Positions 31,653-50,463 of a DNA stretch of 64,000 nucleotides are shown piece by piece. This DNA is from an uncultured cyanobacterium. Lineage in GTDB: Bacteria; Cyanobacteriota; Cyanobacteriia; Phormidesmidales; Phormidesmidaceae. Location: positions 64,001 to 128,000 of the forward strand of contig CAWBZI010000002.1 in assembly GCA_963793265.1 (NCBI GenBank), given 5' to 3'. The notes beneath the pieces were generated by a model, which saw only the letters and a list, made by a program, of their open reading frames with translations, was not told where the DNA came from and made no database searches. The translations under genes and the position numbers were made by a program. Numbering within the stretch: the first letter of the stretch is position 1; the number at the start of each line of letters is the position of its first letter.

Positions 31653-31814
31653 GGGACATGCGTCTAAATAAAGTACCGCTGATAGCGCTGTTCATTGCCT
31701 CGGGCATAGCAGTGCTAAGCCCCTACAGAAATTGACGGTGACGTAGGGGCATAGCACGCTATGCCCAGGGCAATATTTGTCGGTTTGCCGGTACTTTTTT
31801 TGAGCGCAGCTCCC
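31653..31814 (+). mobile_element. 162-bp MITE, copy 1 (26-bp imperfect TIRs, TAA target duplication, internal REP doublet)
   Basis: TAA[GGGACATGCGTCTAAATAAAGTACCG...CGGTACTTTTTTTGAGCGCAGCTCCC]TAA; near-identical to copies 2 and 3. Confidence 0.9.
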
Positions 31815-36825: not shown

Positions 36826-36987
36826 GGGAGCTGCGCTCAAATAAAGTACCGGCAAATCGACAAATATTGCCCTGGGCATAGCGTGCTATGCCCCTACGTT
36901 ACCGTCAATTTCTGTAGGGGCTTAGCACTGCTATGCCCGAGGCAATGAACAGCGCTATCAGCGGTACTTTATTTAAACGCATGTCCC
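36826..36987 (-). mobile_element. 162-bp MITE, copy 2 (inverted)
   Basis: TAA[GGGAGCTGCGCTCAAATAAAGTACCG...GCATGTCCC]TAA. Confidence 0.9.
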
Positions 36988-46472: not shown

Positions 46473-47951
46473 ATGAGCGCGATCGCCCAATCACCCGCCC
46501 TGACCGTTCCAGGCCCGGCCCCTACCCCGATTTTGGGGGCCGTGCCTAACACGCTTCAGTTTGCGAAAGATCCGATTGCCTACACGCGCCAGCTTTTCAA
46601 CGACTATGGCAATCTAGTTGCCTTAGCACAGGGCGGTGGCACCCGGCTTTACTCACCGTATCCTGAGTGTCCTGGTACGGTTTTTGCCTGTGGCCCAGAG
46701 ATTATCCGTCAGGTGGCGACTCAGCCAGAGGTGTATTACAAGTGTCCGTTGACGGGGCCGATCTATCGCTTTCGTGACGAGTCGGCGCGGGCAAAGCCGC
46801 TGAATCATTTTTTGGTGGGTATTTTTGGCGACAATGAGGCGGCGCATAAAAAACAGCGCAAGCTGATGATGCCAGCTTTTCACCATCAGCGGCTGGGTAG
46901 CTATGCCCAGGACATGATTGCGATTACTGAAGATGAGCTGAACCAGCTAGCGGTAGGGCAGGTGCATAACCTGTCGGCTGTGATGCAACAGGTGACGCTG
47001 CGAATTGCGGCAAAGTCTCTTTTTGGTGAAGATATTGGCCCGGCGGGGGCGAGTACGGGAGAGATTTTGCATGAGGCTTTGGCCTTGCAGGGAAGCCTGG
47101 CGATGAAGCTGATGCGATATGATTTGCCGGGGCTACCGTGGCGGCGTTATTTGAACTTAGTGGCGCAGTATGAGCAGGCGATGAAGGGGCTACTGGCGGC
47201 GAAAAGAGAACGCGGCTGTGATGAGGCTGACGTGCTTTCTATGCTGATGCAGGTGCAAGATGAGGAGACTCAGGAAAAGCTGAGTGAGGAGGAGCTGTTG
47301 GGGCATGTCGGCGTGATCTTTATTGCGGGTCATGAGACGAGTGCGAATGCGCTGACCTGGACGTTGTTTTTGCTGTCGCAGCATCCGCAGGTGATGGCTG
47401 ATTTGCTAGATGAGTTAGACGGCGTTTTGCAGGGAGATGCGCCGACTTTAGAACAGCTCAAAAGTCTGCCGCTGTTGGAGCGGGTGGTGAAGGAGAGTAT
47501 GCGGGTGCTTGCGCCTGTGCCCTGGAATGGGCGGGTGACGGCTAAGGAAACGGAGCTGGGCGGCTACAGTTTGCCGAAGGGGACGGAGGTATTTGTGAGT
47601 ATTTCTCAAACGCATCATATGAGCGATTTGTTCCCTAATCCTGAAGCGTTTGATCCGAGCCGGTGGGAGACGATTACACCAACTGCTTACGAATATAATC
47701 CGTTTAGTGCGGGGCCTCGAATTTGCATTGGTGCGGGTTTTGCGATGATGGAGATTAAGATAATTTTAGCGATGTTGTTGCAGCGATACCGGCTAGAGTT
47801 TGTGCCTGAAAATCCGATTGACCGGGCGGGGACGATCGTGATGAGGCCCAAGCATGGGATGACGATGAGAGTGCATAAGCAGGATCGTCAGTTTGATGCG
47901 GGGGTGGGCTCGGTTACGGGTAATATTCGCGATATGGTTAATTTGCCTTGA
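46473..47951 (+). CDS. Cytochrome P450
   Basis: IAGHETSA, ESMR, FDPSRW and FSAGPRICIG. Confidence 0.95.
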   Translation: MSAIAQSPALTVPGPAPTPILGAVPNTLQFAKDPIAYTRQLFNDYGNLVALAQGGGTRLYSPYPECPGTVFACGPEIIRQVATQPEVYYKCPLTGPIYRFRDESARAKPLNHFLVGIFGDNEAAHKKQRKLMMPAFHHQRLGSYAQDMIAITEDELNQLAVGQVHNLSAVMQQVTLRIAAKSLFGEDIGPAGASTGEILHEALALQGSLAMKLMRYDLPGLPWRRYLNLVAQYEQAMKGLLAAKRERGCDEADVLSMLMQVQDEETQEKLSEEELLGHVGVIFIAGHETSANALTWTLFLLSQHPQVMADLLDELDGVLQGDAPTLEQLKSLPLLERVVKESMRVLAPVPWNGRVTAKETELGGYSLPKGTEVFVSISQTHHMSDLFPNPEAFDPSRWETITPTAYEYNPFSAGPRICIGAGFAMMEIKIILAMLLQRYRLEFVPENPIDRAGTIVMRPKHGMTMRVHKQDRQFDAGVGSVTGNIRDMVNLP

Positions 47952-48032
47952 GCTGTATAGAATTTAGCAAGTAAGTTTTCTGCTTTTACGCGATTGCTTC
48001 TATTAGCTGTAAATACAAATAGATTCAAAACT

Positions 48033-48434
48033 ATGAGCGAAACAGTCACCCTTCAACTTCCTGAACGATTGCACCAGCGACTGGTTAAAACGGCTGAGGC
48101 AACGCAGCGAACTCTAGAGTCTGTCATTATTCATGCGCTCACGGTGGGTAGTCCACCAGATTGGGATGACGCCCCCGAAGAATTCCAGGCTACCTTAGCA
48201 GCGTTGGATCGATTAGAAGATAGTGCATTGTGGGAGATTGCTCGGAGCCGAAAACCTGTCGCTGATATGGAGCGCTACGACAAATTGCTAGAGCTTAATC
48301 AGGCGAACACTATAACTGACTCTGAACGCTTAAAGCTGTTTGACTTAAGAGAAGAGTCTGAACATTTTATGTTGAAAAAAGCCCATGCAGCAGCGATTTT
48401 AAAATGGCGGAGGCATCAAATAGCTGCGGCCTAA
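48033..48434 (+). CDS. Hypothetical protein with N-terminal ribbon-helix-helix-like region
   Basis: MSETVTLQLPERLHQRL.. followed by a helical acidic C-terminal part; ATG at 48033 preferred. Confidence 0.65.
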   Translation: MSETVTLQLPERLHQRLVKTAEATQRTLESVIIHALTVGSPPDWDDAPEEFQATLAALDRLEDSALWEIARSRKPVADMERYDKLLELNQANTITDSERLKLFDLREESEHFMLKKAHAAAILKWRRHQIAAA

Positions 48435-48483
48435 TCAGGCGTAGACTGTGGAGAAAGATATGTGAGGATATCTTGTCAAAAAA

Positions 48484-48513
48484 TTGACACGATTAAAAGA
48501 ATACTGATACGCT
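48484..48513 (+). promoter_or_regulatory. Sigma70-type promoter for the 48735 gene
   Basis: TTGACA-N18-(TGa)TACGCT; implies a leader of about 215 nt. Confidence 0.55.
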
Positions 48514-48562
48514 AATACACAGTGCTGTTGTTCTCACGTAGAACTTGCAGCCAAACGCCCCG

Positions 48563-48642
48563 AAAAATTTAGCCACTGACGATGACTGCTCCAACAGTCA
48601 CCGCCAGCTAGCCCCTAAACTGCGTTAACCAGTTCAGAGGTT
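48563..48642 (-). ncRNA. Predicted ~80-nt cis-antisense RNA (two hairpins plus U-tract)
   Basis: All four stem mismatches of the two hairpins are A-C on the plus strand, which is G-U on the minus strand. A minus-strand promoter TTGCCA-N19-(TGt)CATCAT lies at 48679-48649, and a U-run follows the second hairpin. Confidence 0.5.
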
Positions 48643-48734
48643 GTGTCCATGATGACACAGCCACCCTGACCTTTGGCAAGTTAGGGCGGGCTTCCTTTTT
48701 CGCGGGTTTTCTTCCACCCTCATCGGAGAAACCC

Positions 48735-49037
48735 ATGAAAACGACCAGCTTCACCACTGATCGGCCTTTGCCCGGTCAGCCTCTCTCGCCTACGCTCTTA
48801 CTGCCAACTACACCCAATCCGCTGCCTCAGCTCACCCCAGTCGGTGCCAGGCCCAAAGAACATATCCGTCATATTCTTTTAGGCTCGCCCGCCGCCGTCC
48901 GCCAAACGATTCACCTCTTCCATACGCTTCACTATGCTGAAACAGTTCTGTGGAGCCCCATACTCATGATTGAGGAGCCGCTGATAATTACGCCAGCGCA
49001 AGGGGAGGCGATGAGTTTGTTGCGTAAGTCGCTTTAG
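48735..49037 (+). CDS. Conserved-looking small cyanobacterial hypothetical protein
   Basis: Core IRHILLGSPAAVRQTIHLFHTLHYAE..WSP..GEAMSLL; SD GGAG sequestered in a hairpin. Confidence 0.7.
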   Translation: MKTTSFTTDRPLPGQPLSPTLLLPTTPNPLPQLTPVGARPKEHIRHILLGSPAAVRQTIHLFHTLHYAETVLWSPILMIEEPLIITPAQGEAMSLLRKSL

Positions 49038-49078
49038 TGCTTGCCTGCAATCCAGTAGCGCTGCTCAAACCATCCTAA

Positions 49079-49231
49079 GGGACATGCGTCTAAATAAAGT
49101 ACCGCTGATAGCGCTGTTCATTGCCTCGGGCATAGCAGTGCTAAGCCCCTACAGAAATTGACGGTGACGTAGGGGCATAGCGTGCTATGCCCAGGGCAAT
49201 ATTTGTCGGTTTGCCGGTACTTTATTTGAGC
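49079..49231 (+). mobile_element. 162-bp MITE, copy 3 (right end truncated by about 9 bp)
   Basis: TAA-GGGACATGCG...TACTTTATTTGAGC, then unrelated sequence. Confidence 0.88.
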
Positions 49232-49465
49232 CCATAGGAGAAAGCTATTAGCGCTGCCATGTAGGGTTAAAAAGAAGACCATCTGTCGCCATGCGTAGGC
49301 TGAGTTTTTGAGGTGAATAAGAGAAGCGTGCCAGGTGGGCGTGTTCATTTGCATCCGCTGAACAATCCACACAAAGCAGTCTTGGGCGAGCTGCTGATAG
49401 CTGCCGTCAAAGGCTTCGAAGATTTGGGCTGCGATCGCCTCAGAAGTATAGAGAATGAGTTCCTA
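49232..49465 (-). pseudogene. Fragment of a larger unknown gene cut by the MITE
   Basis: Protein-like frame ELILYTSEAIAAQIFEAF..QLAQDCFVWI..LKNSAYAWRQMVFFL with no start; it runs into the MITE end. Confidence 0.45.
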
Positions 49466-49500
49466 TAGAGAAGAGGTACTACCAGCGACTTTCTAGCTTT

Positions 49501-50463
49501 TTAACCGCCACCGCCACCGCCACCGCCGCCACCGCCACCGTCAGAGATTTTAGGAATAACAAATTGCTTTTCAGCATGATAAGAACAGCTTCCGCAGTGG
49601 CTGACCGTCGCCCCTAGCCCTCTTCTATAGCGGGTTGCACTTTGTATGTCTCTACGCGATCGCTTCAATTTATACTCGCTGCAGTTAGGACAGCGAGCGC
49701 TTCTCACCTTTGCAACAATAATAAGCGTCACGATTGCAACTGCGCCCACTGCCCAGCCATTCAAAGCGCTAACAAACTTCGAGGTTTTTTCTCCAAAAGA
49801 CAGCTCGGGTAAATTGAGGATACCAGTTGGGAAGGCAACTCGAATCTCTAACTCTCGCTGCGGATGGATGGGCCTGGAAGCAACGAACTCGAAGGTTCTA
49901 GGATCTACCTGACGAGAGGTTGCTGCTGTGTCAAAGCTAGTGAAATTGGTCGCTTTGCCAGATAAAGCCTCTGGCAGAGTAACTAGCACCTTCGCGTTTT
50001 GAATGGGTGCTTTACGATCAGCAAAGATAGCTTTCCAGTAAACCTGCGTGTTCTGGCTACGTTTTTGTAATCCCCCCACGACTCGGTACTTCAAAACAAA
50101 TGTATGCGTTTCTGGTGGATTCAGTTCGTGCTGCCAGCGAATCCAAAGCTGATTATTCTCAATTCCAGTTACACTCTCAACAACCTGGCCGTTTTCCTCG
50201 ACCGCGACATCTCTAATGTCATCTACTTTGGCCAGGGGAATATAGCGATACCTTTGATTAGTATGCTCTCGGTTAAATACATATTCTTGCTCTTCTGTGA
50301 TCAGCATATCGCCGTTCGACTGAACGTCTATATTGACGTCAATACGCTCCCAGTAGAACGGGCTCGACTGAGCTGAAGAGGCGATCACAACCGTCTTAGC
50401 AGAAAAGACAAAAAGTAAAGCAATCAATGCGAGGATAGTTCACGTGATCCATTTTTTGGTCAT
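49501..50463 (-). CDS. DUF2207-like exported domain with TM helix, Cys4 zinc ribbon and poly-Gly tail; premature TGA in the signal peptide
   Basis: ATG at 50463 reads MTKKWIT*TILALIALL.. in frame with the 50427 ORF; CPNC..CGSC; (GGY)n tail. Confidence 0.7.

Follow-up and report, generated by a model that had tools for sequence, protein, structure and literature searches.

A multi-copy cyanobacterial gene cassette with strand-specific leader helices and probable cis-antisense control of a 100-residue protein

We analysed a small gene and its leader within a 64,000-nucleotide (nt) stretch of DNA from an uncultured cyanobacterium (assembly GCA_963793265.1, contig CAWBZI010000002.1, positions 64,001 to 128,000), which we call the window. 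The gene encodes a protein of 100 amino acids (aa), and the locus is one of about 20 copies of a self-contained cassette found in Phormidesmis/Leptolyngbya-type cyanobacteria. As a whole, the cassette is best explained, with reasonable probability, by a cis-antisense RNA that controls a leader containing an attenuator and a sequestered Shine-Dalgarno (SD) sequence. This view is founded on the opposite strand preferences of adjacent helices in the leader, which are a family-wide and covarying feature of the homologous sequences. The antisense RNA, which we describe with a covariance model named R1, and the protein both represent new families, and the principle of control is already known. When positions 48000-49500 of the window were read, every element of the original prediction, which had been made from this DNA alone, was found in its place, including the sigma70-type promoter and the leader of about 215 nt with five hairpins (H1 to H5; Table 1).

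In total, 78 distinct homologous leaders were extracted and aligned, and these were used for the folding of each helix and for the counts of pair cells in Table 1. H1 and H2 had each been predicted to hold two A·C mismatches that turn into G·U pairs on the minus strand, which is the case in the window and holds across the 78 leaders. The mismatch cells of H1 and H2 together comprise 254 A·C and 20 G·U on the plus strand, whereas those of H3 and H4 are reversed, with 227 G·U and 20 A·C. Such a reversal over only 40 nt of one and the same molecule excludes an overall bias in base composition or mutation; it implies that selection favours the pairing of H1 and H2 in a minus-strand RNA and of H3 and H4 in a plus-strand one. 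When the helix segments were folded separately, H1 was more stable on the minus strand in all 78 leaders and H2 in 75, whereas H4 was more stable on the plus strand in 64. H3 to H5 had been predicted to favour the plus strand; this held for H4 and for H3, the latter by its mismatch cells and by segment folding (plus 41, minus 23, equal 14), and failed for H5, which had no strand preference (plus 32, minus 44, equal 2).

Pair statistics from the covariation tools were obtained with 71 of the 78 leaders, leaving out seven rows, namely two that were long, three whose H4 loop holds an insertion and the two that diverged most. On the plus strand, the proportions of paired cells were 82.6% for H1, 74.7% for H2, 90.3% for H3 and 97.1% for H4, and on the minus strand they were 87.6% for H2' and 97.8% for H1', in which 12 of the 13 pairs had changes on both sides. 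The covariation of H2' and H1' on the minus strand was 0.516 versus 0.223 in shuffles, and that of all four helices on the plus strand was 0.291 versus 0.134; neither value was reached by any of 500 shuffles. RNAalifold gave the aligned leaders -47.1 on the minus strand versus -19.1 on the plus strand. The minimum free energy (MFE) of the window leader was -78.3 kcal/mol on the plus strand and -103.6 kcal/mol on the minus strand, with z-scores of -3.67 and -6.25, respectively, so that its structure is beyond chance. An all-against-all covariation scan returned, besides the four helices, isolated noisy pairs only, and a long-range GAAAAA/UUUUUC helix was uninformative because both of its sides are invariant. 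YUNR loop motifs were not enriched on either strand among the 78 leaders (H1 33/33, H2 19/35). In a distant subfamily of ten copies from the same genome, the minus strand was again better for H1 (8/9) and H2 (10/10) and the plus strand for H4 (9/10), and the direction of the A·C/G·U asymmetry was consistent in every subgroup that we inspected.

Based on these comparisons, it is likely that a cis-antisense RNA is made and represses the gene. Its putative promoter would be built into the sense hairpins, with the -35 box in the H4 loop and an extended -10 box in the 3' arm and loop of H3. Read on the minus strand, the H4 loop is CTTGCCAA, where the TTGGCAAG columns are at least 90% conserved, and the H3 3' arm and loop give TGnCATnAT. 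The minus-strand TG derives from an A (78/78) and a C (76/78) in the H3 3' arm, and the H3 pair adjoining these two fixed bases covaries (GC in 39, AT in 28 and GT in 10 leaders); a fixed TG beside a covarying pair is the expected look of an extended -10 box embedded in a hairpin. In the distant subfamily, the sequence of which differs, TAnnnT was present on the minus strand inside H3 in all ten copies (for example TACAGT, TAAAGT or TATCTT). The elements of the minus-strand promoter, which had been proposed from the window copy, are thus conserved. In three foreign leaders (L061, L062 and L056), the H4 loop is enlarged by an insertion of 15-25 nt through which the TTGGCA/TTGCCA motif is duplicated, and this would be a duplication of the -35 box if the promoter reading is right.

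The covariance model R1, a kind of check that the original prediction had suggested, has 91 positions and 24 pairs. In the genome of the window (5.68 Mb, 7 contigs) it found 20 places at E<=0.01, and the 12 that scored at least 72 bits were all antisense to the open reading frame (ORF) of the family. In a phylum-wide sample, R1 matched in 11 of 151 genomes and 7 of 80 genera; five foreign matches checked by hand lay 5' of, and opposite to, the ORF, and two weak matches in one genome were ambiguous. A profile of the own-genome leaders gave 12 strong and eight weaker matches at E<0.01, all 20 directly 5' of a family ORF, so that no orphan leader was found in this genome. From the species genomes of GTDB, 171 stretches encode a relative, of which 80 were used, and with a profile of 12 leaders the leader stood directly 5' of the ORF in 79 of 88 loci (8/8 own, 71/80 foreign). 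The comparison of homologs thus bears out the strand-specific structures, the conserved promoters and the linkage of leader and ORF, and it supports a sense leader and an antisense RNA that share the same DNA.

A six-frame search of the own genome with the protein returned 27 matches at E<=10, 12 of them at E<=1e-16, and a more distant group of the 'AEPNDWS' type had E-values of about 1e-5 to 4e-3. There are at least 12 close and eight distant paralogs, each with a homologous leader. Between any two of the 12 close paralogs, the identity of the antisense region does not exceed 82%, with an average of 56% for H1, and each antisense RNA would therefore be fully complementary to its own leader only. 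One paralog (L089, G000:C2:476307-476663) has kept the leader and lost the conserved C-terminal 20 residues, in place of which about 50 unrelated residues follow; it may be frameshifted or decaying. In a collection of 5.8 billion proteins, 278 homologs were found at E<=0.001, and among the 120 of these that were listed all were unnamed or 'hypothetical', with the named sources being of the Phormidesmis/Leptolyngbya type. A profile search of 1.84 billion representatives gave 215 clusters at 50% identity, and across a sample of the phylum the protein occurred in 51 of 401 genomes and 25 of 156 genera. It is, as the original prediction had stated, a multi-copy cyanobacterial hypothetical family.

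Farther from the window copy, the protein is accompanied by other leaders, and R1 matched 3 of 17 distant loci only. Distant homologs with 38-47% identity over the C-terminal 60 residues are encoded on eight Nostocales plasmid records, and no record of a phage collection matched the family. In plasmid D of Trichormus variabilis ATCC 29413, the homolog (L132:1264-1611) is located between parG-like and replication-related genes, and its leader contains a 99-nt inverted repeat that is 71% complementary, with arms 150 nt apart, and includes about 23 perfectly complementary bases just 5' of the start. Judged from this sequence, it is a different putative RNA lock on the same protein family. Some more distant lineages had a shorter, different leader, and 6 of the 10 loci listed showed such a leader, which ends in a U-run and can form alternative hairpins. 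In the copies L103, L105, L107, L111, L119 and L120 of the sampled genus g5, about 130 nt 5' of the ORF, a hairpin ACAGCAC...GTGCTGT overlaps an alternative pairing GACAGCA...TGCTGTC and is followed by TTTTCTTC, which looks like a terminator/antiterminator pair without an obvious antisense module; the genomes with these short leaders also hold R1-type copies.

The 3' half of the leader contains two further elements that could limit expression. H4 has a GC-rich stem of 11-12 base pairs (bp), in which pair 48663:48687 covaries (AU 44, CG 15, GC 10), and T5 follows it in at least 76 of 78 leaders. Since H4 and its U-run are placed about 35 nt 5' of the start codon, the ORF could be expressed only by read-through. 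We modelled the leader thermodynamically as far as H4 and calculated P(H4), the mean H4 pair probability, with the antisense target free or blocked, that is, with 48563-48641 unavailable. Over the 78 leaders the mean P(H4) rose from 0.70 when free to 0.94 when blocked, and values below 0.5 were obtained in 20 leaders when free and in 2 when blocked; in the window copy P(H4) rose from 0.07 to 0.44. With natural targets P(H4) was 0.70 versus 0.85 with shuffled ones; 59 of the 78 leaders had a lower value with the natural target, and in 34 this value was below every one of eight shuffles. This modelling lends partial support to an attenuation step at H4. As for H5, the SD window had an average pairing probability of 0.62, which exceeded 0.5 in 46 of 56 scorable leaders, the fold was 2.9 standard deviations better than with a shuffled upstream part (MFE z -2.9), and a pyrimidine anti-SD motif was present in 52 of the 56. 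The burial of the SD in H5, as originally predicted, is therefore borne out. An upstream ORF (uORF) encoding MMTQPP*, which had also been proposed, is not conserved: its ATG occurs in 65 of 78 leaders, and the peptide has 2-3 aa in 31, 5-6 aa in 19 and varied lengths otherwise. More plausibly, the ATG reflects the antisense -10 box on the opposite strand, and coupling through the uORF was rejected on account of its non-conservation.

The 100-aa ORF shows the pattern of a real coding region, with differences at the three codon positions of its C-terminal domain of 0.29/0.175/0.563 (67 of 78 coding sequences). An AlphaFold2 model built with 87 relatives had a predicted local distance difference test (pLDDT) score of 71.7, with a disordered segment of 40 residues followed by a core of strand 43-50, helix 52-64 and strand 92-99 and without any membrane helix, in agreement with the predicted soluble protein that is unlike the small membrane toxins. 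A two-copy model of residues 38-100 scored 0.79 versus 0.00 for the best control, with strand 43-50 paired across the interface; in calibration, 20 of 30 proteins solved as one-chain pairs attained the mark for this score, as did 1 of 23 proteins solved as single chains. The runs agreed in at least 97% of contacts at a pLDDT of 86, which are figures of model confidence and not of measurement. Based on these models, the protein is probably soluble and dimeric. The ORF had no match in Pfam (E<=0.1), NCBIfam, PADLOC or PHROGs, none of the 87 family members matched any Pfam family at E<=0.01, and the protein therefore matches none of Pfam's type I toxin families. A sequence profile search of the PDB gave only a chance match (E=0.19), Foldseek against pdb gave none at E<=0.001, and a wide fold search (VIA) had its best Z of 4.5 to MinE; by the same searches there was no sign of SymE or AbrB, and an unlisted fold is not thereby excluded. 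A search of a protein atlas returned cyanobacterial hypotheticals only, and a literature text search for three family peptide motifs returned no paper. A match to a 2180-aa histidine kinase (P0183) was rejected, as it involved a repeated fragment resembling a kinase N-box and had BLASTP E-values of at least 0.25.

From these observations we propose the following mechanism. A conserved sigma70-type promoter would drive the leader of about 215 nt and then the soluble, probably dimeric protein, and a convergent promoter inside the leader, with its boxes in H4 and H3, would drive an antisense RNA of about 80 nt. This RNA would fold into the two stem-loops H2' and H1' and be fully complementary only to 48563-48642 in the leader of its own copy. 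The 3' half of the leader would present H3, the H4 attenuator with its U-run just 5' of the ribosome binding site, and the anti-SD/SD hairpin H5. By pairing with the nascent leader, the antisense RNA would remove the sequences that compete with H4; H4 could then form and transcription would stop ahead of the ORF, as in countertranscript-driven attenuation. The duplex may also trigger decay, and transcripts that escape H4 would still be poorly translated because H5 hides the SD. The layout agrees with such attenuation, as the predicted antisense RNA, 48642..48563, is complementary to the leader 5' of H4 (48660-48700). The production of the antisense RNA, the mode of attenuation and the role of the protein are what we infer here, and attenuation at H4 as the main repression step is a possible but tentative assignment.

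Several points weigh against this mechanism. The antisense RNA and both 3' ends are predicted from sequence. The U-run of H4 begins 3-4 nt past the stem, and a simple terminator scan did not call H4. The minus-strand U-run is separated from the H1' stem by 7-12 nt, a greater distance than in a canonical intrinsic terminator, and it is therefore uncertain where the antisense RNA has its 3' end. The spacer between the antisense -35 and -10 hexamers is long in the window copy (19 nt); it is shorter where the H3 loop is shorter, with 17 nt in L042 by a by-eye count. In 58 of the 78 modelled leaders, H4 forms with a P(H4) of at least 0.5 even when no antisense RNA is involved, and the refolding switch is for that reason not general. 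In such a model, moreover, blocking any competitor can only raise P(H4). A specific antiterminator helix had no covariation support in the all-against-all scan of the 78 leaders, and a candidate plus-strand helix between an upstream CCGCCYY element (E0) and the 3' arm of H2 was rejected, since cognate pairs (-6.25 kcal/mol) were no better than non-cognate ones (-6.60 kcal/mol). The rows of the alignment are related paralogs and orthologs, so that the pair-cell counts exceed the number of independent events. Finally, the protein yields no functional clue.

The antisense RNA may instead act post-transcriptionally, either through a duplex that leads to cleavage by RNase III/E and decay or through the block of a ribosome standby site, with H4 as a constitutive partial terminator or a stabilising hairpin. 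Standby-site control is used where a target is far upstream and the SD is sequestered, as in the action of IstR-1 on tisB, and in the cassette the antisense target is 95-170 nt 5' of the start codon and the SD is held in H5; H4 also forms unaided in the 58 models mentioned above, so that no switch would be needed. However, the natural targets compete with H4 beyond what shuffled ones do, and no single-stranded standby site was identified in the leader, and we regard this alternative as doubtful. If there were no antisense RNA, the whole leader would have to be a plus-strand riboswitch or a target of protein binding, perhaps of the encoded protein itself, through which the H4 terminator is controlled, and the A·C positions of H1 and H2 would be tolerated or protonated pairs. 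The order of promoter, structured leader, terminator, SD and ORF is indeed that of a riboswitch or an autoregulatory leader, most cells of H1 and H2 remain paired on the plus strand, and the predicted dimer with its inter-subunit beta ribbon would suit nucleic-acid binding. We consider this highly improbable, because the A·C excess of H1 and H2 and its reversal in H3 and H4 would be left unexplained, as would the minus-strand promoter elements in two sequence-divergent subfamilies, and the leader has no Rfam match. Even less probable is an independent trans-acting small RNA encoded opposite the leader, or a collision of convergent promoters without RNA pairing. The two promoters are predicted to start transcription towards each other from sites some 120 nt apart, and interference between convergent promoters was shown for RnaG/icsA (PMC2879508), whereas the RNA never occurred apart from the ORF among the own-genome leader and R1 matches, and interference alone would not select a folded RNA with so many covarying H1' pairs.

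Whether the cassette is a strict type I toxin-antitoxin system depends on the protein, which would have to inhibit growth while each antisense RNA serves as the unstable antitoxin of its own copy. The gene stands alone with a predicted cis-antisense RNA and without a partner gene, its expression would be subject to three stacked locks, and there are many copies per genome with antisense regions as divergent as described above. The occurrence of distant homologs on the Nostocales plasmid records, one of which has a leader with a different and equally extensive RNA fold-back, is also in line with such a system. On the other hand, the protein is modelled as soluble, has 100 aa and no membrane helix, and is neither a hydrophobic membrane peptide of <60 aa nor, as judged from the Pfam searches, a member of Hok, Ldr, Fst, TisB, Ibs, ShoB, TxpA, SymE or RalR. 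It has no Pfam or PADLOC match, the family is absent from the phage collection, and antisense RNAs also accompany many tightly regulated non-toxic genes. A type I assignment is thus a possibility by analogy of layout, which seems unlikely to us in its strict form, and toxicity of the protein is equally questionable.

Compared with known systems, the proposed control of the cassette by its antisense RNA is closest to plasmid and virulence gene attenuation. RNAI/II-repC of pT181 and RNAIII-repR of pIP501 are examples of countertranscript-driven transcription attenuation. In RnaG-icsA of Shigella, the heteroduplex generates an intrinsic terminator on the nascent icsA mRNA, and the convergent promoters also interfere with each other (PMC2879508). 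The cassette shares with these three a stem-looped cis-antisense RNA, here predicted, that starts from a promoter within the leader and is complementary to the leader's 5' part, a terminator-like hairpin with a U-run just 5' of the ribosome binding site, and convergent promoters. It differs from them in that the regulated product is a 100-aa protein instead of a Rep or virulence protein, the cassette is chromosomal with about 20 copies, the antisense promoter boxes are inside the loops of sense hairpins, and only about one copy in four shows the refolding switch in the model. The systems symE/SymR, tisB/IstR-1 and hok/mok/sok are type I systems with soluble or 5'-UTR-targeted designs. Like them, the cassette has a small gene that stands alone under the guard of a short antisense RNA, here predicted, and an SD locked in structure; the far-upstream target resembles that of tisB, and the modelled solubility of the protein resembles SymE. 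In contrast with symE/SymR, tisB and hok, the protein has no homology to any Pfam family, the predicted antisense RNA leaves the SD uncovered, unlike SymR, and the proposed uORF, which would be the analogue of mok, is not conserved. Since the target is 95-170 nt 5' of the start and the SD is uncovered, the attenuation layout fits at least as well as hok/sok and symE/SymR.

Copy control in CopA/CopT-tap-repA of R1 and CopG/RNAII-repB of pMV158 includes a small dimeric protein. The cassette is similar to both in its two-stem-loop antisense RNA, of about 80-90 nt, with a target well 5' of the regulated start, whereas it has no downstream rep gene and no conserved leader peptide, and its small protein is the regulated product and not a known repressor. 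With type III toxIN, the cassette shares the gene order of promoter, structured RNA, terminator and protein gene, whereas its RNA has no tandem repeats, its structured part is selected on the opposite strand, and its protein is unrelated to ToxN-type endoribonucleases as judged from the Pfam and PADLOC searches. In cyanobacteria, type I systems are barely documented, and MsoT1/MsoA1 of Microcystis aeruginosa is the first candidate, according to its description (PMC12390103), and the only cyanobacterial one that we found in print. MsoT1 is there described as a protein of 63 aa with predicted membrane helices, and MsoA1 as an RNA whose target is the 3' UTR and the 3' end of the coding sequence (PMC12390103). 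The two systems share a small cyanobacterial gene and a cis-encoded antisense RNA with two hairpins, which is predicted here, and differ in that our protein is soluble in its model and has 100 aa, and our RNA would pair with the 5' leader.

Should the antisense RNA be real, the cassette would be a clean case of two opposite-strand RNAs on the same 130 bp, in which the RNA of each strand leaves its own signature, G·U or A·C, in adjacent helices. It would also be a rare chromosomal and multi-copy version of a leader/countertranscript design that is known mainly from plasmid copy control. A joint reading would hold that these are new, lineage-expanded type I-like modules of filamentous cyanobacteria, in which a soluble, intertwined-dimer effector is toxic or otherwise dangerous, about 20 mutually orthogonal cis-antisense RNAs per genome silence their own copies by attenuation from promoters built into the loops of sense attenuator hairpins, and other RNA locks have replaced this leader in the more distant homologs of other genera and of Nostocales plasmids. 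In its entirety we rate this reading as improbable; if it were true, the need for a lock at the RNA level would be a property of the protein itself. A type I family with about 20 copies per genome would alter the cyanobacterial picture, and even if the protein is non-toxic, twenty paralogs with private antisense RNAs would be a ready set of orthogonal RNA regulators.

Table 1. Elements of the cassette in the window, with pair cells counted over 78 leaders (WC, Watson-Crick; plus-strand A·C corresponds to G·U on the minus strand)
Feature	Position	Strand	Description	WC	G·U(+)	A·C(+)
Conserved upstream promoter region	48463..48483	+	GTGAGGAT..TGTCAAAnAA; A-rich, UP-like; consensus of 73 promoters			
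Sense promoter (predicted)	48484..48513	+	-35 TTGACA 48484-48489; 18-nt spacer; -10 TACGCT 48508-48513; predicted transcription start about 48520			
Variable 5' leader part with terminal stem-loop	48520..48555	+	predicted stem; length varies by 26-76 nt among copies			
Predicted antisense RNA, about 80 nt	48563..48642	-	H2' 48640..48612; H1' 48607..48576; spacer GGCUAAA; U-run 48567..48563			
H1	48576-48588 with 48595-48607	plus coordinates	A48579·C48604, A48582·C48601	826	13	152
H2	48612-48622 with 48630-48640	plus coordinates	C48614·A48638, A48617·C48635	650	7	102
H3, sense hairpin	48641-48647 with 48654-48660	+		391	108	6
uORF MMTQPP*	48649..48669	+	from the original prediction; judged not a conserved feature			
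Putative antisense promoter	48649..48679	-	-35 TTGCCA 48679..48674 (H4 loop); extended -10 TGtCATCAT 48657..48649 (H3 3' arm and loop)			
H4 and U-run, terminator-like attenuator	48660..48700	+	stem 48660-48670/48680-48691; TTTTT 48696-48700	713	119	14
H5	48704..48734	+	anti-SD TTTTCTTCC 48707-48715 pairs with SD region GGAGAAA 48725-48731 (GGAG 48725-48728)			
100-aa ORF	48735..49037	+	first 40 residues variable and disordered; residues 43-100 form a conserved beta-alpha-beta domain at the C-terminus			

The sense promoter follows the pattern TTGAC[AG]-N16-18-TAnnnT in 73 of the 77 homologous loci examined. In an alignment of the sequences that precede the ORFs of the 12 close paralogs, the promoter was conserved together with about 190 nt of leader, which reach to the start codon; conservation ceases at the stop codon of the ORF. 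The -10 box has a GC-rich core, being TACGCT in 41 of 73 promoters and TAGGGT, TAGGCT or TAGTCT in others, and this core might, by analogy, indicate a particular sigma factor. In the window copy the upstream region forms TGTCA-N6-TGACA with the -35 box; this candidate operator was exact in 14 of 73 promoters only, and as it is not general we do not consider an operator established.

The neighbours of the cassette were clustered using 998 ORFs from 100 loci. Apart from the family itself, which occurred in 98 loci, the largest cluster (15 loci) comprised an ORF antisense to the gene, and no other cluster reached more than seven loci, so that no neighbour gene recurs among the 100 loci. The cassette therefore stands alone, and in the absence of a recurrent partner gene its regulation must be internal. 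Upstream in the window, a 133-aa ORF (48033-48434, plus strand) has no Pfam or NCBIfam family and is not kept beside other copies of the cassette; its N-terminus presumably resembles a ribbon-helix-helix motif of the antitoxin type. Downstream, a DUF2207 membrane protein (Pfam E 1.8e-18) is encoded at 49501-50427 on the minus strand, in an ORF that ends with a run of 13 glycines. A search of 47500-50000 on both strands against Rfam (release 15) at E<=10, one of the checks named in the original prediction, gave three matches, all of which were outside the leader and below the gathering threshold, and the leader itself had none on either strand. Among them, a match to MIR5387 at 49118-49203 (32.6 bits, against a gathering score of 69) corresponds to the hairpin (-56.3 kcal/mol) of a 116-nt palindromic element just 3' of the ORF, at 49100-49215. 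Among the first 15 of 33 BLAST matches, this element is repeated with 96-98% identity at no fewer than six other full-length places, including 31674-31789 and 36851-36966 of the window, and looks like a repeat of the miniature inverted-repeat transposable element type.

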